A stretch of 64,000 nt of DNA. Origin: Myxococcota bacterium (GTDB taxonomy: Bacteria; Myxococcota_A; UBA796; UBA2385). A model generated the notes under the pieces. That model did no database searches, was not told the origin of the DNA, and saw only the letters and a program-made list of their open reading frames with translations. Each line of letters opens with the position of its first letter. The first letter of the stretch is position 1. Below, one piece after another: positions 3,049-56,666 of the stretch. The stretch covers positions 320,001 to 384,000 of the forward strand of contig JBIJDH010000001.1 in assembly GCA_044344255.1 (NCBI GenBank). Reading direction: 5' to 3'. The translations under genes were made by a program, and so were the position numbers.

Positions 3049-5709
3049 TCAGTCCTCGATGGACAGAGAGGGAGAGGGAGAGCTCCAGCCATCCCCGGCC
3101 CGATCGACCCGGATCGCGGCCGTCATCGCCCAGGGCGCGGTCCCCGGGTAGACCGGCGCCATCGGCGTGGCCCCCCGGGCGACGACGACGTAGGCGGCGT
3201 CCACGGCTCCGTCGAGGGCGAAGCGGAGGTCATCGGTGGGGGCGCGGGTGTCGACCACGACCCCGTCCTTGTAGAGGTCCACGGCGTCGATCACCACGAA
3301 GCTCGGGTGATGGAGCGCCACCGTGAGGGTGGGCTCCCCCGTGAACAGACCGCCCGGCGCCCAGGATCCGTCTATGGTGGCGTCGATGTAGGGGCCGCGG
3401 CTGACGACCGTGGCGTGGGCGGCCATCGAGGAGACCAGCAGCGTGTCGGTCAGCAGGCTCGGATCGTCGACCCCGGCGCGGAGGTAGGTGACGCTGTCGC
3501 CCTGGCCATCGGTGTAGTCGTGGCTGTCGCTCACGCCCACCGGCGTGGGCAGCAGGCCGCGGTTGACGAGGTCGAGGTAGGCCGCGAAGTAGGCCTCGTA
3601 GCTCCCGGAGTTGAGCACCTCCATGGCGTCGAAGTCTGCAGACCAGTGGTCGGCCTTCTTCACCGTGCCCGTCTCCGTGTCATAGGCCGCCTGCCCGAGC
3701 ATGCCGGAGTTGCCGACAGGGTGATTGATCTGGATGATCCCCGGCTCGCCGTAGAGGCGGTCCCGCATGACCTCGAAGAGCTCGGGCGTGGTCCAGGCGT
3801 TCTCCCACCACAAGGGGGCCCCGTTGTTCGGCCCGTCGTCGCTCAACGTGAGCGGGTAGAGGTTGAAGTGGCCGCGCAGAACGGGGCTCACCTCGTCGGC
3901 GACGATGGTGTGGAGCGTCCCCTCGAGGCCGAGCGGGCCGAGGAGCGGCCGGTAGTCGGCGACGTGGTCGTGGTCGGTGCCGAAGTGCACCTCCACACCG
4001 ACGGCCGCGGTCATCACGAGGCGCTCCTCCATCGGCACGCTGGCGTCGCTCGAGGGGGAGGCGTGGATGTGGGGGTCGAGCACGAGCACCCCCTCGGGGG
4101 CCACGACCTGCGCGAGCTCTGCCATCAGCCACTGCTGCTCCCCGCTCCCGATCGTGACCGCCGCGGTGAAGGGCTCGTACCGGAGGCCTCGGTGGACGGT
4201 CACCGTGTAGTCGCCGGGCTCGAGTGAGATCGCGCCCTGGCCGCTGCGCACATAGCAGAGGGCCGCGCTCCCCCCGGGCCGCCCCGGCACGATTCGAGGA
4301 TCGACGGCGGCCGGGTCCCCCGCGGCGAAGTCGACCCGCACCACCGCGGGCAGGCCGTCCCCCACCTCCACGACGAGGGCGCCCGGCGCGGTGAGGGAGA
4401 GGGCGGTGCTGGCCGAGGCGGGGGCGGACGCGCCCACGCCGAAGCCCTCCGCAAAGTCGATGGGCAGCGCCCCGTCTTGGATGGCCGCGAGGGCCTCGGC
4501 CTTCACCCCCGCCGCGGCGTAGGGGCCGAACCAGGGCGCGCCCGCGGGGAGCTCGACCGAGATCCCGGTGCCGCGGCCGCTCGGCGCCGCCGTGAAGCTG
4601 CGTCCGGCCGGGACCTGGGCCGACCAGCCCCCGAGGGCGTCAGTCCGGGCTTGGGTCCACGGCTGGCCCTCCTCGTCGAAGAGCGTGACCCGCGCGCCGG
4701 AGACCGCCTGCCCGCCTCCATCGGTGACGGTGCCGCCCGCCGCCGTCCCCGCCTCCCCGCGGGCCGCGAGCCAGGCGTCGCTGAGGGTGGCGAGGTCGGG
4801 GCCCACCCCGAAGGCGCGCCGAAAGGTGAAGGGCGCGCCGGCGGTGAGGGGGATCCCGCTTTGCAAGCCGGTGATCACGGGGCCGATCGCGCCGAGGAGG
4901 TCTTGGACCACCGAGCCCGTCCACGGCTCGTCCAGCGACATCAGCGCGAAGGCCCCCTCGCCGTGGTTGCCCACCACCCCGATCCAGGTGCCGGCCGCCG
5001 CCGCGTCTTCGTCGTAGCCCTGCCCGGGCGCCCAGCGGGCCGCGCCGTCGAGCGACATGAGACCGATGTCGCCGACGTCGGCGACGGTGTCCTCGTCCGC
5101 CCAGTCCACCGTCGTCTCGACGAGCAGGAGCGGGCTCCCCGGCGCGAGGGTGTAGGTCGTGGTGACGGTCATCTCCCGCTCGGCCACCATCTCCGGCGCC
5201 TCGAGCGCCCCCGTGACCAGCGCCATCGGCGCGGCGTGGCCCACCACCTCGACGATCGCGGCGCCGCCGTCGGTGCCGTCGCCGAGCACGGTGATCGCGT
5301 CCGGCGCCACGATGCGGCCGAGGCCCACCATCACCGCCAGCTCATCGACGACGTCCCGGCCGGGCTGGCCCTCGGGGCGCACGACGTCGGCGTCAATGAG
5401 GCCGCCCCCCTGGCGGATGTAGTAGTCCCCGTCGCGCAGGCCCTGTACGACGAAGGCCGCGCGGTCGTTGTAGAGCTTGACGTCGCCGGCCCGCCCCTCG
5501 GCGGCGATGCCCCCAAAGAGGGCCGCCTCGTCGGTCACGAAGCCCGCCCGCGCGGTGAGCGCGTCGAGCCGCTCGGTGAGGTCAGGCGCCTCTGGCTCGG
5601 GCGCGGGAGCGCCCTTCGACGGCTCCTCCGAGCGGCACGCGAGGCCGAGGAGGCCGAAGAGGCCGAGGAGCGACAGCGAGCGAGGGCGGACAGCAGAGGG
5701 GGCGCGCAT
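3049..5709 (-). CDS. PHP-type (CehA/McbA-like) metallohydrolase lipoprotein with carboxypeptidase-regulatory-like domain
   Basis: Lipobox GLAC; PHP motifs DPHIH, TDHD, GHFN, INHP, SDSH. Confidence 0.8.
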   Translation of the reverse strand: MRAPSAVRPRSLSLLGLFGLLGLACRSEEPSKGAPAPEPEAPDLTERLDALTARAGFVTDEAALFGGIAAEGRAGDVKLYNDRAAFVVQGLRDGDYYIRQGGGLIDADVVRPEGQPGRDVVDELAVMVGLGRIVAPDAITVLGDGTDGGAAIVEVVGHAAPMALVTGALEAPEMVAEREMTVTTTYTLAPGSPLLLVETTVDWADEDTVADVGDIGLMSLDGAARWAPGQGYDEDAAAAGTWIGVVGNHGEGAFALMSLDEPWTGSVVQDLLGAIGPVITGLQSGIPLTAGAPFTFRRAFGVGPDLATLSDAWLAARGEAGTAAGGTVTDGGGQAVSGARVTLFDEEGQPWTQARTDALGGWSAQVPAGRSFTAAPSGRGTGISVELPAGAPWFGPYAAAGVKAEALAAIQDGALPIDFAEGFGVGASAPASASTALSLTAPGALVVEVGDGLPAVVRVDFAAGDPAAVDPRIVPGRPGGSAALCYVRSGQGAISLEPGDYTVTVHRGLRYEPFTAAVTIGSGEQQWLMAELAQVVAPEGVLVLDPHIHASPSSDASVPMEERLVMTAAVGVEVHFGTDHDHVADYRPLLGPLGLEGTLHTIVADEVSPVLRGHFNLYPLTLSDDGPNNGAPLWWENAWTTPELFEVMRDRLYGEPGIIQINHPVGNSGMLGQAAYDTETGTVKKADHWSADFDAMEVLNSGSYEAYFAAYLDLVNRGLLPTPVGVSDSHDYTDGQGDSVTYLRAGVDDPSLLTDTLLVSSMAAHATVVSRGPYIDATIDGSWAPGGLFTGEPTLTVALHHPSFVVIDAVDLYKDGVVVDTRAPTDDLRFALDGAVDAAYVVVARGATPMAPVYPGTAPWAMTAAIRVDRAGDGWSSPSPSLSIED

Positions 5710-5770
5710 CCGGCGAGGATACGCCGAGTCGGGGCGGCCCGCCGGGATAGGGGCGCCGCCGGAGGTTCAA

Positions 5771-7126
5771 ATGGCCAAGTGGAAGGCGCCCTGCACGGTC
5801 CGCATCGACGGGCTCGACGAGCGCGCCTCGACCGGCGTGGACGCAGAAGGTCGGCGGTGGAAGGTGCGGAACGGCCCCGTCGGCGCCGACCTGCACGTGG
5901 CCCCCGGGCGCAACCAGACCGCCCGCCGCCTCGCCGTCGAGCGCCCCGCGCCCGACGCCGTCGATCCCCGCTGCCCCGTCTTCGGCGTCTGCGGGGGCTG
6001 CCAGCTCCAGGAGATGCCGCTCGACGCGCAGCGACAGGCCAAGCAGGCCCTGGTCACCCGCCTCGTCGGCGCGGAGGGCGTAGTAGTGCACCCGATCCGC
6101 GGCGCGCCGGCGGCCTACCACTACCGGAACAAGCTCGAGCTCAGCTTCTCGCCGCGCCGCTTCGTGCCCGAGGGGGAGCCCGCGCCGCCCCCCGGCGGGA
6201 GCTGGCTCGGCTTCCACCCCCCGGGCTGGTTCGCCAAGGTGGTGCCCATCCCGGGCTGCCCCCTCGGCACCCCCACGATGAACCGGCTCATCGCCGAGGT
6301 CGCCGCCGCAGCCCCCGAGCCCGCCTGGGACACCCTCGCGGGCGCCGGGGGTTGGCGCCACCTCGTGCTCCGCGAAGACACTGACGGGCGCTTGCTCGTC
6401 ACCCTGGTCACCTCGGCGACGGTCACGGGCGAGCAGGTGGAGGCCCTCGCGGCGCGCTTCATCGAGTGGCCCGAGGTCCGGACGGTGCTCCACGTCGCCA
6501 ACGACGGCGTGGCCGAGGTCGCCACCGGGCGGATCGCGGCGGTGCTCAAGGGCGCCCCCACCCTCGAGATGACGATCGGGGCGCCGGCCGGGCCGCTCCA
6601 TCTCTCGCTCCCGCACGACGGCTTCTTCCAAGTCAACACGGCGGGCTCCGAGCGGCTCTTCGCGGTGATCGACGAGGCGCTGGGCGACACGAAGGGCACG
6701 CTCCTCGACCTCTACTGCGGGGTCGGCGTCATCGGCCTCAGCCTCGCCCACCGCTACGCCCGCCTGATCGGCGTCGAGCTGCACGCGGGCGCAATCGAGA
6801 TCGCCCGCGAGAACGCGCGCAGGAACCACATCCAAGGCGAATGGACCGCCGGCACCGTCGAGGCCGTCCTGCCCACGCTCCGCCTGGAGGGTCCGCTGGC
6901 GGTGGTCGTCGATCCCCCGCGGGCCGGCCTCCACCCCTCCGCCGCCCGCTTCCTCGCCGGGCTCCCGGCCGAGGTGCTGGTCTACGTCGCCTGCAACCCC
7001 GCCTCGCTCGGCCGGGACCGAGCGGTGCTGGCGGAGGGCGGCTGGCGGCTCGAGGCCCTGTGGTCGGTCGACCTCTTCCCGCAGACTCCGCACGTCGAGG
7101 CGATCGGGCGCTTCGTCCGCGGCTGA
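5771..7126 (+). CDS. rlmD: RNA (uracil-5)-methyltransferase, RlmD/TrmA family
   Basis: GGAGG before ATG 5771; CPVFGVCGGC Fe-S motif, FFQVN, LDLYCGVG, DPPRAG, YVACNP, DLFPQTPHVE. Confidence 0.85.
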   Translation: MAKWKAPCTVRIDGLDERASTGVDAEGRRWKVRNGPVGADLHVAPGRNQTARRLAVERPAPDAVDPRCPVFGVCGGCQLQEMPLDAQRQAKQALVTRLVGAEGVVVHPIRGAPAAYHYRNKLELSFSPRRFVPEGEPAPPPGGSWLGFHPPGWFAKVVPIPGCPLGTPTMNRLIAEVAAAAPEPAWDTLAGAGGWRHLVLREDTDGRLLVTLVTSATVTGEQVEALAARFIEWPEVRTVLHVANDGVAEVATGRIAAVLKGAPTLEMTIGAPAGPLHLSLPHDGFFQVNTAGSERLFAVIDEALGDTKGTLLDLYCGVGVIGLSLAHRYARLIGVELHAGAIEIARENARRNHIQGEWTAGTVEAVLPTLRLEGPLAVVVDPPRAGLHPSAARFLAGLPAEVLVYVACNPASLGRDRAVLAEGGWRLEALWSVDLFPQTPHVEAIGRFVRG

Positions 7127-49176: not shown

Positions 49177-49617
49177 TCAGGGCTGATCGGCGCGCCGCTC
49201 GTCAATCTCCACGAGGTTGACGAGGTTCCCCTCCGGGTCTTGCGCGGTGAGCAGGCGGGTGTTGCCCTCCTTCCGCGGCTGAAAGACCCGCATCCGATGC
49301 TGCTCCAAACGACGCTTCAGACCGGCCAGATCGGGCACAGCCAGCTCAAGGTAGAAGGACTGGCCGTCGCCGCGGTTGTAGCCCTGCACCTTGACCGCGT
49401 CGAGCAGCACTACCTTGACCGGCCCCGCCTGCAGCAGCAGGTGGTTTCGGCCGCGGCCGACGATCTTGAGCCCGAGCAGATCGACGTAAAATTCCCGAGC
49501 GACCGCGAAATTCCGACACGGGATCGTGACCCCTTTGAGGCGGGTCGCGCCCCGATCAGCCCGCTCGGCGGAGGTGGAGCCGGGGCGTGTGCGGGACCAG
49601 AAGCCGCGGGTGCTCAC
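49177..49617 (-). CDS. VOC/glyoxalase-family protein
   Basis: AREFYVDLLGL, DPEGNLVNL. Confidence 0.82.
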   Translation of the reverse strand: MSTRGFWSRTRPGSTSAERADRGATRLKGVTIPCRNFAVAREFYVDLLGLKIVGRGRNHLLLQAGPVKVVLLDAVKVQGYNRGDGQSFYLELAVPDLAGLKRRLEQHRMRVFQPRKEGNTRLLTAQDPEGNLVNLVEIDERRADQP

Positions 49618-49733
49618 AGGGTGTGGCTCACGGGGGGGTGGCTCACGGAGAGGTGGCGCACGGAGAGGTGGCTCACGGAGAGGGTGCTCACAGGGTGTGG
49701 CTCACGGGGTGACGCTCGGGGTGGCTCACGGGG
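49608..49733. repeat. Imperfect ~15-bp tandem repeat (GGTGGCTCACGGAGA-like), 8 cores
   Basis: GCTCAC/GCGCAC cores at 49612, 49626, 49641, 49656, 49671, 49686, 49700, 49723. Confidence 0.85.
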
Positions 49734-52282: not shown

Positions 52283-52581
52283 CGGTGAGTTGGGGTGGTG
52301 GTTGGTCGGAACCTCGACCGACACTCGGCCGCCCCCGAGACAGACTTCGAAGCGAAAAGGAATCGGAGCGAGGCGAACAGACCTCCACCTCAACAAAGGC
52401 GGCAAGGTGCGGACTGCTCGCGGCCCCAAGCTCAGTGCACGCGGTGCGTGCACTCTTGACCTGGACCCACCACCGTGAGCTCCCTCGACCGACGACCCGG
52501 GAAGCTGGCGCTCCCTCGCTCTGGGCGCATTCCAGCTGACTGGGACATTGAGCACGCGCGACGGTATGTGCGTACTGCAGC

Positions 52582-52855
52582 CTGTGCAGCGCGAGGCGGC
52601 CCACCTCCAGCGCATGCGCGAGGCTGACGGCCAACGACTGAGCCCCGAACTCGCGCTCAAGCTCCCTGCAGAGATCCTCGACGCTCCGCTGAAGGGTGAG
52701 CTTTCCGAGCGCCACCTTGATGACGAGCTCCCGGGGGCTCACGACGCTCAGGGGGAGCTCATCGGCCTCGAGGATCGCCTCCCTGGCGGTCGCCGAGAGG
52801 GCTTCGGACCGGAGAGCGCCCAGAGGGCGGCGTGGGTGTCGAGCACCAAACTCAA
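52582..52855 (-). pseudogene. vapC: VapC (PIN) toxin pseudogene, frameshifted and truncated
   Basis: TTG at 52855 gives LSLVLDTHAALWALSGP; 1-nt frameshift near 52805; continues EALSATAREAI..LSVVSPRELVIKVALGKL..HALEVGRLALHR; DPFDR motif missing. Confidence 0.78.
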
Positions 52856-52960
52856 TGGGACCTGAAATCCAAACCCTCGATGGACAGGGGCTCATCGAAG
52901 TCGTCTCGAAGTACCGCGACGCCGGGCATCGTCCCGAAGCGCCGCCTCGGTGTGGTCGCT
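52852..52960 (-). pseudogene. C-terminal remnant of the cognate antitoxin
   Basis: PRRRFGTMPGVAVLRDDFDEPL..stop, resembling the RxxG..DDFDxPL tail of VapC-associated antitoxins; its TGA overlaps the vapC TTG; no start found. Confidence 0.6.
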
Positions 52961-53035: not shown

Positions 53036-53090
53036 ATCTTCGGGGAGCAAGCCGAGCTCCCCGCCCCATCACCCAGCGGTGACGTTGGCC

Positions 53091-53344
53091 GCTCAGCCCC
53101 CGTCGGCCAGCCGGGTGCGCCGCCGCAGCCGGTACTCCCGCAGCACGTACTTCACGAAGGTGAGGTCATCGAGGAAGCGGGGGCCCATGCGCTTCGGCTC
53201 CAGGATGACCCGCCAGGTGATCTCCACGCCGCTCGTCAGCATCCAGCGCGGGGCGCGGGTGGTGAGGCCGGTGGCGATGTCGAAGGCGCCGCCCACGCCG
53301 AGCACGAAGGGGACCTTGAGCTCGGCCCGGTTGCGCTCCACGAA
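53091..53344 (-). repeat. Direct repeat copy 1: orphan 3' end of the wecG-like gene
   Basis: 254 bp matching 55843-56096 with 5 mismatches by eye; encodes FVERNRAELKVPF..RLADGG stop without the 5' part. Confidence 0.95.
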
Positions 53345-53447
53345 GGACAAGGTCGCCCACTTCACGCTGTACTTCACACCTCCGCCACGTGGCGTTACGG
53401 GAGGCGCAGGCGACCGGGTGTGAAGCCGGACGCCAGAGGGGGTGAAC

Positions 53448-54245
53448 ATGACCGACAGCCCGCTGACCGGCCCGCCGCCGAGTGAGGTGCCGCTACCACG
53501 GGCGCCGCTGGTGCGGGTGATCGCGCAGGTCCGCTTCCCGATCATCGCCTCGGTGGAGAAGCGCGACTTCATCGCGCAGTTCCAGGAGGCGATCCGGGAT
53601 AACTACCCGTTGATGCGTCAGGAGACGTCGAGCTCCCTCGTCAGCACACAAGGCCTGGGCCAGATCGAGGTGCGGTCCAACACCGTCTGGAGGTTCCACG
53701 ACCGGGAGCATCACTGGCGTGTCACGCTCGCCGCAGATTTCATCGCGCTGGAGGCGAACGCCTACAGGAGCCGCAGGGACTTCTTCGGTCGCTTCGAGCG
53801 CCTGATGGTGGCGCTCGCTGAGCATGTCCGCCCCAGCGCACTCGACCGCCTCGGGGTTCGGTACATCGACCGGCTCACGGACCAGGCGTTTGGCGAGCTG
53901 TCCTCGTTCATTCAACCCGCGCTGCTGGGCGCACTCGGAACAACGGTGGGCCGTCACGCGCGGCTCGCCCTCAGCGAGTACGTGTTCGACTTGCCCGACG
54001 AGCGTGGTCAGATGCGGGCACGTTGGGGAATCGTTCCAATGAACGCCACCATTGACCCGACCGCCATAGAGGCGATCGATAAGCCGAGCTGGATCCTCGA
54101 CCTCGACGCCTTCGTGCAGGAGGAGCGAACCTTCGAACCCACGCATGTGGCAAAGGAGGCGACCCGGCTGGCCGCGCGATGTTACGCCTTCTTCCGTTGG
54201 TCGGTGACGGAGCGGTTCCTTGAGTACTTTGCGGAGATGCCATGA
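53448..54245 (+). CDS. TIGR04255-like sporadically distributed protein
   Basis: APLVRVIAQVRFP, YP, WRFHD..WRVTL, F..RF, RLGVRYIDR, WILDLD, FFRWSVT; AGAGGGG RBS. Confidence 0.75.
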   Translation: MTDSPLTGPPPSEVPLPRAPLVRVIAQVRFPIIASVEKRDFIAQFQEAIRDNYPLMRQETSSSLVSTQGLGQIEVRSNTVWRFHDREHHWRVTLAADFIALEANAYRSRRDFFGRFERLMVALAEHVRPSALDRLGVRYIDRLTDQAFGELSSFIQPALLGALGTTVGRHARLALSEYVFDLPDERGQMRARWGIVPMNATIDPTAIEAIDKPSWILDLDAFVQEERTFEPTHVAKEATRLAARCYAFFRWSVTERFLEYFAEMP

Positions 54246-54952
54246 CCTCGATGGTGCATGAAGGCGTCCCGACGTACGGCACCTCCGCGATGGGCGCGCG
54301 GTCTACGCGCCCGGCCCTCATGGTGGTCTTGGTGACGGGGGCGATCACACTCCAGGCGACCACCGCCAGCCGTGAAGGTTGTCTCATCGGCGTTCAAGTG
54401 GTCTTCGACACCAGCGCGACGACCGCCGGGGGTGGGATCGCCGCCTCGGCCGCCGTGTCCGAGCCGGCCGAAGCGGACACGACGGCGCAGGCGCTCTCGA
54501 AGCTCCGTCGGGTATCCGGCTTGACCTGGGAGCAGCTCGGCCGTGTGTTCGCCGTGAGCCGTCGCGCGGTGCACTTCTGGGCGAGCGGAAGGCCCATGTC
54601 CGCCGAACACGAGGAGCACCTTCGACAAGCGCTCGCGCTGGTTCATCACCGTCCGGCGGGGGCCGATCAAGTACGCGGCGCCCTGCTCTCCATCGTCGAT
54701 GGACAGCAGGTGCTGGAGCTCCTCGCGTCGAAGCGCTTCGAGGAGGTGGAGGCTGCGCTGACGTCGAGCGTGGGCGCGAGACAGCGGCCGAATGCACCCA
54801 CACGGGCGCCGCTCTCCCCGTCAGCCAACGCCGCTCGGCGACCACCGCCGCCCGACGTGATGGCGGCGGGCGAGGACGAGTCCGCGCACACCCTCATGGG
54901 GCGCGGGCGAACGGCGCGCACCTCGCGGAGTCGCGGTCGTGGCCAGTCCTGA
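54242..54952 (+). CDS. Xre-type HTH protein with MbcA/ParS-like C-terminal segment (putative antitoxin/regulator)
   Basis: LRRVSGLTWEQLGRVFAVSRRAVHFWASG; GQQVLELLASKRFEEV; ATGA overlap with upstream gene. Confidence 0.7.
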   Translation: MTSMVHEGVPTYGTSAMGARSTRPALMVVLVTGAITLQATTASREGCLIGVQVVFDTSATTAGGGIAASAAVSEPAEADTTAQALSKLRRVSGLTWEQLGRVFAVSRRAVHFWASGRPMSAEHEEHLRQALALVHHRPAGADQVRGALLSIVDGQQVLELLASKRFEEVEAALTSSVGARQRPNAPTRAPLSPSANAARRPPPPDVMAAGEDESAHTLMGRGRTARTSRSRGRGQS

Positions 54953-55784
54953 CCACGGCTCCGCAGACATCGACCAGGCACTGGCGTCGTGGCGCCAGGG
55001 CGACAGCGTGCTGGGCCAGCACTGGTTCCTTGGGCGGGCGGATCCATCGCGACCCATCACAGACCAGAGCCGGGAGGACTGCGACCCCGAGACGGGGAAC
55101 TACGAGAGCGAGGTCCCCGGGTTCTCCGTCCTCACGCAGACCTGCGATCTGGTCCGGCGATGCGATCACCGTCCATTCGTCGAGATCGCGCCGCTCACCC
55201 ACCTCGACGAGGAGGAGTGGCGATCCGTGGTCCGGGGGCGCCAGCCGCGTTTCGCGTGCGTGCCGGCGCTGGCCCACCGGCGCCTCGCCGTCGACCTCGA
55301 TCGCGTGATGACCGTGGAGAAGGCGGTCGTTGCCACATGGGAGCGCGTCCCGGGCTGGTCTACGGACGATGAAGCTCGATCCTTCGCGCTCGCGCTGGCG
55401 CGCAAGCGGGCCCGCGCAGCGCTCCCCAATGACTTCGTCGAAGTGGCGCGCCCTCTCCAAGGCCGAATCGTCGAGAGGCATGACAAACAGAGCGAAGAGG
55501 GGCAGGCGCTGCGTTCCCTTCGCGAAATCCGCGTCCGCGCGGCCCCTTCCTGGGAAGCCGCCGATGTGGAGATCGACCTCCTCTTCATCCGAGACGAAAC
55601 AGCCACGGAATTCGCGGGCAAGACCTGGGCGGATTGGATGAGCCAGTGGCTGAAACGCGTTCCGGCTGGCGGGCGCTTTCGGCGCATCGATGGAGTTGTA
55701 CAGACACTCGACGACCTCAGCGCCCGAGACTACCTTGAGAGCGATCCCCTCGACCTCGGGTACCTGTCCGACCGCCCGCCGTAG
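54939..55784 (+). CDS. Hypothetical protein with MazF/PemK-like N-terminal pattern (putative toxin)
   Basis: WRQGD, VLTQTCDL, VEIAPL, VDLDRVMTVEK; GTG start overlaps upstream CDS end. Confidence 0.65.
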   Translation: MASPDHGSADIDQALASWRQGDSVLGQHWFLGRADPSRPITDQSREDCDPETGNYESEVPGFSVLTQTCDLVRRCDHRPFVEIAPLTHLDEEEWRSVVRGRQPRFACVPALAHRRLAVDLDRVMTVEKAVVATWERVPGWSTDDEARSFALALARKRARAALPNDFVEVARPLQGRIVERHDKQSEEGQALRSLREIRVRAAPSWEAADVEIDLLFIRDETATEFAGKTWADWMSQWLKRVPAGGRFRRIDGVVQTLDDLSARDYLESDPLDLGYLSDRPP

Positions 55785-55842
55785 TGAGCGCCATGTCCCC
55801 GCCCCGCGCCCGATCCACGCATCAGGCCCGATGACGCAGGGA

Positions 55843-56096
55843 GCTCAGCCCCCGTCGGCCAGCCGGGTGCGCCGCCGCAGCCGGTACTCCCGCAGTACGT
55901 ACTTCACGAAGGTGAGGTCATCGAGGAAGCGGGGGCCCATGCGCTTCGGCTCCTGGATGACCCGCCAGGTGATCTCCACGCCGCTCTTCTGCATCCAGCG
56001 CGGGGCGCGGGTGGTGAGGCCGGCGGCGATGTCGAAGGCGCCGCCCACGCCGAGCACGAAGGGGACCTTGAGCTCGGCCCGGTTGCGCTCCACGAA
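55843..56096 (-). repeat. Direct repeat copy 2: 3' end of the intact wecG-like gene
   Basis: Matches 53091-53344 at offset 2752. Confidence 0.95.
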
Positions 56097-56666
56097 CTCC
56101 TCCTTCTTGGGGGAGGAGATGGCGATGAAGAGCATGTCGGCCTTGGAGTCGTTGATCTGGCGGGTGATCTCCGCCTCGTCCTCGACCTTGAAGTAGCCGT
56201 TACGGCGGCCGACGATCTGGATGCCCGGATACTGCTTCTCGAAGTTGTCGGCCGCCTTCTGGACCGACTCCTCCTTCGCGCCGAGCATGAAGATGCGGTA
56301 GCCCTTCTTCTGCGAGACCGGCAGCATCTCGAACATGATGTCGACGCTCGGCACCCGCTCGGGCAGCGCGTCCTGGAAGAGGCGGCTGAACCAGATCACC
56401 GGCGTGCCGTCGGCGGTGATGAGGTCACAGGAGCGCACGATGCGGGCGAACTCGGGCTCCCGCTGCATCTTGAGGAGCTGATCGACGTTGACGCCGATGC
56501 TCTGGTAGACGCGGTCACGGCGCGCGATGTAGCCCTCGACCCGGCGGATGGCCTCGGCCATGTCGACGCGGTCGAAGGGGCAGCTGAACATCTGCACGCG
56601 GTCGAGCTTCTCGCCCGCGGCAGAGGTGTGGAGATACTCCCCAGCGGGGATCCCGGCGCCGTGCAT
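55845..56666 (-). CDS. WecG/TagA/CpsF-family glycosyltransferase (GT26)
   Basis: ADGTPVIW, GRRNGYF, SSPKKE, GVGGAFD, RAPRWMQ, EPKRM; ATG 56666 after AGGAG. Confidence 0.9.
   Translation of the reverse strand: MHGAGIPAGEYLHTSAAGEKLDRVQMFSCPFDRVDMAEAIRRVEGYIARRDRVYQSIGVNVDQLLKMQREPEFARIVRSCDLITADGTPVIWFSRLFQDALPERVPSVDIMFEMLPVSQKKGYRIFMLGAKEESVQKAADNFEKQYPGIQIVGRRNGYFKVEDEAEITRQINDSKADMLFIAISSPKKEEFVERNRAELKVPFVLGVGGAFDIAAGLTTRAPRWMQKSGVEITWRVIQEPKRMGPRFLDDLTFVKYVLREYRLRRRTRLADGG

Follow-up and report, generated by a model that had tools for sequence, protein, structure and literature searches.

What is a compact three-gene cassette, bounded by long direct repeats, doing at the end of a glycosyltransferase gene, and do its products form, as was first proposed, a tripartite toxin-antitoxin or anti-phage system? 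The cassette lies in a 64,000 nt stretch of a Myxococcota bacterium assembly (GCA_044344255.1, contig JBIJDH010000001.1, positions 320,001 to 384,000), hereafter the window, to which coordinates refer unless another locus is named. It consists of three coupled genes, all on the + strand and together spanning 53442-55784: gene 1 (53442..54245), encoding a TIGR04255 family protein of 267 aa proposed to be a helper or sensor; gene 2 (54242..54952), encoding a putative antitoxin of 236 aa; and gene 3 (54939..55784), encoding a putative toxin of 281 aa. Genes 1 and 2 share an ATGA overlap (54242-54245) and genes 2 and 3 a 14 nt one (54939-54952), just as an initial annotation, made from the letters alone, had described. 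The cassette is real and widespread, and appears to be of the tripartite toxin-antitoxin kind: most likely it is a mobile three-part module with a non-SecB helper, acting in abortive anti-phage defence, a reading to which we attach a probability of roughly 0.55. Probably it is a bacterial switch against viruses, built to a new design.

The three genes are rarely found apart. Relatives of gene 3 are numerous (1,667 in one search, 1,728 clusters at 50% identity in another), and the best 80 of 148 loci in GTDB were surveyed, from phyla including cyanobacteria, myxobacteria, Gemmatimonadota, acidobacteria, planctomycetes and gammaproteobacteria. Gene 1 is found upstream of gene 3 in 77 of these 80 loci and gene 2 in 78, in the order gene 1-gene 2-gene 3; two of the three loci missing gene 1 are contig ends, the third being the locus L052 considered below. 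A 4 nt overlap of genes 1 and 2 is present in 62 of the 77 loci holding both. The order is also kept by plasmid relatives of approximately 30-50% identity in Rhizobium, Sphingomonas, Kocuria and Chroococcidiopsis, and by two of three viral contigs, such that the distribution is patchy over phyla, plasmids and viral contigs alike. Among 401 genomes of the phylum, 58 gave a match to TIGR04255 and 21 a match to gene 3. Of the latter, 18 adjoin a TIGR04255 gene, a further one lies on a separate short contig and the remaining two are C-terminal remnants. Over 49 loci, the three genes show correlated pairwise identities (correlation 0.54-0.64), the pairs being non-independent. Hence the co-conservation that the initial annotation proposed as a check on its claim is indeed observed.

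The third gene has, according to its structural model, a toxin fold. The model (predicted local distance difference test score, pLDDT, of 88.4) consists of a MazF/PemK/CcdB-fold domain at residues 14-162 fused to a domain resembling a minimal nucleotidyltransferase (MNT) at 161-280. All five of the fold matches counted at Z>=8 were MazF or CcdB, among them 8zws_A (Z 9.5, root-mean-square deviation, rmsd, 2.8, 102 residues aligned), 4mzm_A (Z 9.2) and the CcdB structure 1vub_A (Z 8.8), CcdB being a non-RNase that lies within 1 Z unit of the best MazF match; Foldseek gave the similarity to MazF a probability of 1.00, yet an E value of only about 1e-3. For the C-terminal domain, the matches were the immunity protein MafI (8hhj_A, Z 7.6) and minimal nucleotidyltransferases (Z 6.0-6.8, including 2rff_A at 6.8 and 8xeh_E at 6.4). 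This identifies the extra C-terminal domain noticed from the translation as nucleotidyltransferase-like.

The parallel with the PemK/MazF RNases originally drawn from spaced motifs is thus supported by the motifs themselves and by the fold, but does not extend to the active site or to sequence profiles. The catalytic residues of MazF are an Arg in an RP motif and a Thr in a PLT motif. Across 131 diverse gene 3 sequences, the corresponding Arg position (60) varies, and at that of the Thr (87) the residue is Val in 61% and Thr in just 5%, the window copy being one with Thr; this register was read from the motifs and a weak hhalign alignment, rather than from residue-level superposition. There was no match of PF02452 to gene 3 at E<=1, and the comparison with an alignment of 29 PF02452 members using hhalign was not significant (probability 1.2-3.7%), hence the link to MazF is structural only. 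As the catalytic positions vary in addition, RNase activity of gene 3 is unproven. In the family, W18, Q20, G21, D22, G61, Q67, C69, D70, K128, G139, R155, R159 and P163 are conserved at 95-100%, with C69 kept in 99% and D70 in 97% of sequences. The nucleotidyltransferase catalytic motif takes the form GS...DxD...D. It is not kept in the gene 3 family: the column of Glu211 is Glu in 32% of sequences, and Asp213 is outside the four commonest residues of its own. No RES profile matched gene 3 at E<=1, and RES was absent from the listed fold-search matches.

That neither domain keeps its textbook catalytic motif could indicate that this is no toxin at all, the cassette being instead a small regulatory or metabolic operon in which an Xre regulator accompanies two folds without catalytic activity. 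An intact gene 3 directly downstream of an unrelated 385 aa open reading frame (ORF), at L072, would fit such an operon, although that locus sits at a contig end. We consider this account very improbable given the toxin fold, the MbcA-like antitoxin architecture of gene 2, the sporadic distribution (21 of 401 genomes) and the existence of sister operons with nuclease genes in third place.

The second gene product can be divided into a variable N-terminal tail (approximately residues 1-79), an Xre helix-turn-helix (HTH) with an MbcA-like domain (approximately 80-174), and a basic C-terminal tail rich in Arg and Pro. The Xre/MbcA-like assignment made initially is supported by a profile of the gene 2 family, positions 91-173 of which match residues 20-106 of Mycobacterium tuberculosis MbcA (6fkg_C) across both domains with an E value of 0.0043, and by Xre-like-HTH matches at E<=0.1 in 35 of 56 family members, though it is a weak assignment with matches below the Pfam cut-offs. 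Mean column identity is 0.33 in the N-terminal tail, 0.65 in the core and 0.50 in the C-terminal tail, the last being 21% Lys plus Arg and 0.8% aromatic. The N-terminal tail is 65-90 residues long in the family, and is 31% Ser, Thr or Gly and 4.7% aromatic. It had been described as a hydrophobic extension; a variable tail does exist, and its most hydrophobic 19-residue stretch scores 1.58 in the window copy, but no hydrophobic segment is conserved (median 1.17). A transmembrane anchor was rejected as a family trait, as hydropathy reaches at least 1.6 in only six of the 56 members.

Gene 1 starts at a GTG codon, with an ATG at 53448 as the alternative start, and its identification as a TIGR04255 family member is secure: the profile scores 142.7 bits against a cut-off of 30, with an E value of 1.7e-41. 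No Pfam family matched it at E<=1, and PDB sequence searches with the gene 1 and gene 3 profiles gave no matches. The model (pLDDT 91.8) is a two-repeat alpha/beta saddle in an arrangement like that of the TATA-binding protein (TBP). Its closest solved folds are all weak, at Z <=7.3, a level that the search tool itself calls common; these are the spermine synthase N-domain, McsB, AdoMet decarboxylase and TBP (Z 6.5, rmsd 5.2, 144 residues aligned), with rolling-circle Rep and the N-terminal domain of RnlA/LsoA also among the nearest. SecB was absent among the listed matches, though families not listed could still include it. In a library of viral structures the single whole-fold match was the unnamed A0A515MGR4 (E 1.1e-8), other rows being TBP-like, whilst in the ESM Atlas only unnamed or TIGR04255 clusters were matched. 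A predicted complex of the gene 1 and gene 2 products scored 0.02, which is no answer and bears on neither side.

Further indications of the role of gene 1 come from the genes that follow it elsewhere. A set of 43 TIGR04255 loci was assembled, comprising 29 drawn from the 30 top-scoring of 73 matches in the 401-genome set, 11 from plasmids or phages and three viral. A second ORF on the same strand starts within 45 nt in 42 of the 43, though at least that of L128 looks spurious, and 39 have a third. In 27 cases the third gene is a member of the gene 3 family, in two (L134 and L138) it is a short MazF-like gene without the gene 3 C-terminal domain, and in ten it is different: HEPN, PIN, HNH, two ADP-ribosyltransferase-like, three peptidase-like and two unclassified. 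The HEPN (L133), PIN (L136) and HNH (L139) assignments are supported by Pfam; the ADP-ribosyltransferase-like (L122, L137, L131) and HLxWH peptidase-like (L106, L108, L125) labels were given by eye, with no confirmation from a profile library. The cores of the middle genes are mutually unrelated, being Xre, HEAT-repeat or unclassified; nevertheless 34 of 40 middle genes have more Ser and Thr in their first 60 residues than in the rest (median 0.217 vs 0.123). This survey of neighbouring sequences adds support to the suggestion that gene 1 is the third component of a toxin-antitoxin system. One of these operons, L108 (PV111789.1), is carried by a P2-like Burkholderia phage, with the integrase gene on one side and the portal gene on the other; another toxin-antidote pair lies beside it.

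A mechanism can be proposed from these features. Gene 3 would be a growth-arresting toxin, probably acting on RNA through its MazF-fold domain, with a non-canonical active site formed from the invariant WRQGD and QTCD motifs, K128, R155 and R159, and with the nucleotidyltransferase-like domain serving as a non-catalytic docking or lid domain. Gene 2 would neutralise it through the MbcA-like domain and basic C-terminal tail, and repress the operon through its HTH. The TIGR04255 protein, being translated first, would hold the nascent antitoxin by its variable N-terminal tail and so stabilise it; when a phage protein or host shut-off removed the helper, the antitoxin would be lost and the toxin freed. 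The helper step, from the holding of the tail to the release of the toxin, is the least certain, and we put it forward tentatively.

Two exceptional loci bear on that step. L052 is the only intact locus of genes 2 and 3 without TIGR04255 upstream, and in its gene 2 (4788-5990) the tail is replaced by an unrelated N-terminal region of around 200 aa; a model of the tail scores 1.0 bit on it, as against 17-85 bits in the other 55 members of the gene 2 alignment, from which the model was trained. At L075 (2098-3489), genes 1 and 2 are fused in a single 463 aa ORF with a shortened tail, which may be real or an assembly error. The joint loss in L052 also speaks against defence with a different wiring. 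The target of the saddle would then be nucleic acid or the toxin itself, rather than the antitoxin tail; or gene 3 would poison by binding protein, as CcdB does; or its conserved Cys-Asp pair would perform some other chemistry. Such schemes draw on the presence of TBP, Rep and RnlA/LsoA among the folds nearest to gene 1, on the near-invariance of C69 and D70 whilst the MazF catalytic positions vary, and on the CcdB match of gene 3. Against them, the gene 1 fold matches are all at a commonplace level, and the unrelated folds of the third genes argue against direct contact between gene 1 and the toxin; we regard them as unlikely.

The insert of approximately 2.5 kb is found between two copies of a wecG/tagA 3' end, a direct repeat of 268 nt with 96% identity (53077-53344 and 55829-56096), the core of which is 254 nt at 98% (53091-53344 and 55843-56096). 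The repeat-bounded insert was recognised initially, the glycosyltransferase origin of the repeat being absent from that account. The right copy (55829..56096, - strand) is the insertion site, the 3' end of an intact WecB/TagA/CpsF glycosyltransferase gene (55845-56666, - strand; PF03808, E 4.7e-57). The left copy (53077..53344, - strand) comprises around 83 codons and a stop, its translation matching residues 190-273 of the intact gene product at 94%; since four of the five differences between the coding parts of the two copies move the left-copy residue away from the orthologue in genome G003, it is the displaced, decaying gene end. G003 has a single copy of this gene end, but its downstream synteny differs from that of the window. 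The insert is not an assembly artefact, as DNA contigs from two other runs cross from the left repeat into gene 1, and one contig spans 53433-54843 with zero differences from the window. No strain with an empty site was found, and no joint skipping the insert was seen in four contig sets, though contigs drop rare forms. The unique leader of the insert (53345..53441, + strand) is presumed, from its position only, to be the promoter/operator region; no sigma-70-like promoter was found in it. Two 151 nt pieces in gene 3 from an RNA run (X20, depth 2) may be DNA carry-over and were set aside as evidence.

A tRNA-targeted island was rejected, as the 64 kb window has no tRNA and the insert no integrase or other mobility gene. 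The cassettes bounded by repeats are consistent with insertion with long target duplication, which the accessible text of PMC2853133 describes for restriction-modification (R-M) genes: the duplication exceeds 30 bp, the insert is shorter than 20 kb, and there are three genes, none for mobility. The likeness to what is described there is of a small selfish or defence cassette with long direct repeats and no mobility gene, and the difference is in the cargo. Of 59 related loci with flanks of at least 1 kb, 11 have the cassette enclosed by direct repeats of at least 70 nt, closely so in six (L053, L034, L060, L067, L071 and L005), which occupy unrelated sites; the repeat of L053 (3736-4050 and 6864-7177), for example, corresponds to the 5' end of an ABC-F ATPase gene. 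In the whole genome G000 there are 32 near direct-repeat pairs including that of the window, around 80-580 nt long, 88-99% identical and 0.8-10 kb apart, and others of these may bound similar cassettes. The non-host codon style first attributed to the cassette is present but mild: its genes have a G+C content at third codon positions (GC3) of 0.80-0.84, as compared with 0.90-0.96 for ten flanking genes, but such values lie only within the lowest 17-22% of the 4,096 long ORFs of the genome.

To the left of the insert is a decayed toxin-antitoxin pair (52500-52950, - strand): the antitoxin is a DUF2281-like C-terminal end (E 0.069), and the toxin a frameshifted, truncated gene labelled PIN/VapC-like by eye, neither piece of which has a Pfam match. 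Further away, an imperfect 15 nt tandem repeat is found between two divergent genes (49608-49733).

These sites raise the alternative of a selfish addiction module, a toxin-antitoxin pair and helper that secure their own place in the chromosome (excision between the repeats being one way of losing it) and have no part in phage defence. The targeting of an ordinary gene by insertion with long duplication, the repeats spanning related cassettes, the adjoining decayed pair and the many housekeeping neighbours would all be expected of such an element. Less easily accommodated are the almost invariable retention of a costly third gene, the reuse of the same first gene before HEPN, PIN and HNH genes, the version that a P2-like phage carries with integrase and portal on either side, and high machine-learning defence scores: in Table S4 of DefensePredictor (PMC13092281), at least eight TIGR04255 clusters are predicted to be novel defence genes, with log-odds of 4.7-9.3 at a cut-off of 4, and TIGR04255 is not in the accompanying file of screened systems, as far as the accessible part of that source extends. 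Addiction is consequently thought rather unlikely, if somewhat less so than the alternative wirings.

The surroundings of related cassettes are similarly suggestive of defence. Of 136 nearest-neighbour ORFs, 127 were scanned, nine near-duplicates from sister genomes being dropped, and 46 could be named: 12 are of defence or toxin-antitoxin type (five type I R-M genes, a type II methylase, a CBASS lipase, PtuA-like, DrmD-like, HepT-like and PIN genes, and an Xre-peptidase antitoxin), seven belong to mobile elements and 27 are ordinary. Enrichment in defence genes is suggested rather than measured, as most of these matches score under the curated cut-offs and the scan had no control set.

Abortive anti-phage defence by a three-part module nevertheless has a number of observations weighing against it. 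The 27 ordinary genes are the majority of the named neighbours, 81 of the 127 are nameless and three hsdM neighbours stem from related genomes, whilst the site in the window itself is a polysaccharide cluster beside a decayed toxin-antitoxin pair, rather than a defence island. Gene 3 was unmatched among 50,697 phage records, and relatives of gene 1 are on only three viral contigs. The surveyed TIGR04255 loci were the best-scoring ones, which favours the clade of the window, and both the co-loss in L052 and the fusion in L075 are single cases in metagenome-assembled genomes. To these must be added the unconserved catalytic positions, the insignificant hhalign comparison and the near-equal CcdB match of gene 3.

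Extending the proposal beyond the window, TIGR04255 proteins may constitute a second class of gatekeeper for toxin-antitoxin systems, independent of SecB: a saddle that would hold the N-terminal tails of unrelated antitoxins and sense phage on behalf of many toxins (MazF-fold, HEPN, PIN, HNH and ADP-ribosyltransferase-like), with gene 3 as a toxin of MazF fold whose active site is new. This is a speculative generalisation, about as doubtful as the helper step. If true, it would provide a function for TIGR04255, present in 58 of 401 genomes of the phylum, and for the gene 3 family, with around 1,700 clusters at 50% identity; it would imply that the release of toxins under chaperone control evolved a second time, with an unrelated fold and with the polarity reversed. 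As a sensor already paired with several toxins, the protein would then be a modular component for detecting phage.

As the initial proposal required, no match to a catalogued system was found. PADLOC 2.0, Pfam and NCBIfam 20.0 hold no model for genes 2 and 3 or for the system as a whole, and with PADLOC 2.0 and NCBIfam 20.0 genes 1-3 of the window clade matched no defence-system component, giving only HTH-level or weak matches. A full-text literature search, which did not reach subscription papers or bioRxiv supplements, found no paper naming TIGR04255; the operon combination is undescribed in the searchable literature, though those sources may hold a description. The cassette is not described in the accessible parts of PMC9122126, PMC13069673, PMC10440598, PMC13617665, PMC13092281 and bioRxiv 10.64898/2026.10.19.760177, and the supplement of PMC13069673 has no TIGR04255. 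In a by-eye comparison with the 3HP system of Rousset (hp+hp+hp), restricted to Table S2A of PMC9122126, lengths differed and the family motifs were absent.

By motif and profile tests, the cassette is distinct from MazEF, MbcTA and MNT-HEPN. It resembles MazEF/PemIK, and CcdAB, in the predicted fold of gene 3 residues 14-162 (Z 8.4-9.5) and resembles MazEF in the RGD-like start, P-L-x and D-x-V-x-T-V-E-K motifs, which are in register; it differs in lacking a PF02452 match and conserved catalytic Arg and Thr positions, in having an insert between strands 1 and 2 and a fused 120 aa domain, and in its Xre/MbcA-like rather than MazE partner and obligatory third gene. With MbcTA/Xre-RES it shares the Xre HTH and, weakly (E 0.0043), the MbcA-like C-terminal domain of gene 2, whereas gene 3 has no RES match and gene 2 has long tails at both termini. 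The MNT-like fold of residues 161-280 (Z 6.0-6.8) recalls the type VII MNT-HEPN system MntA-HepT, but lacks the conserved GS/DxD, is fused to a toxin domain and has no HEPN partner. Type II Gabija, as portrayed in the accessible text of PMC13069673, likewise has a divergent MazF-like effector, GajC, in an anti-phage operon, but GajC has a UvrD helicase partner and a five-helix insertion, and the cassette has no helicase.

The closest analogy is with the toxin-antitoxin-chaperone (TAC) systems, which are ordered as that name implies; the cassette has the reverse order of accessory, antitoxin and toxin in 77 of 80 loci. Its accessory protein is TIGR04255, SecB not being among the matches listed, and its candidate toxin combines a MazF fold with a nucleotidyltransferase-like domain. 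With HigBAC, CmdTAC and MqsRAC, as described in the accessible text of bioRxiv 10.1101/2024.02.24.581848, it shares the coupling of three genes, a variable and probably disordered extension of the antitoxin, and the reuse of one accessory family across toxins. According to the same source, the chaperone addiction domain (ChAD) is C-terminal on the antitoxin and recognised through aromatic residues, whereas the extension in the cassette is N-terminal, Ser/Thr-rich and aromatic-poor (4.7%), a scarcity that counts against a helper of the kind proposed. Hence the best reading, by analogy, is that the cassette would work like the TAC systems but is not one of them.

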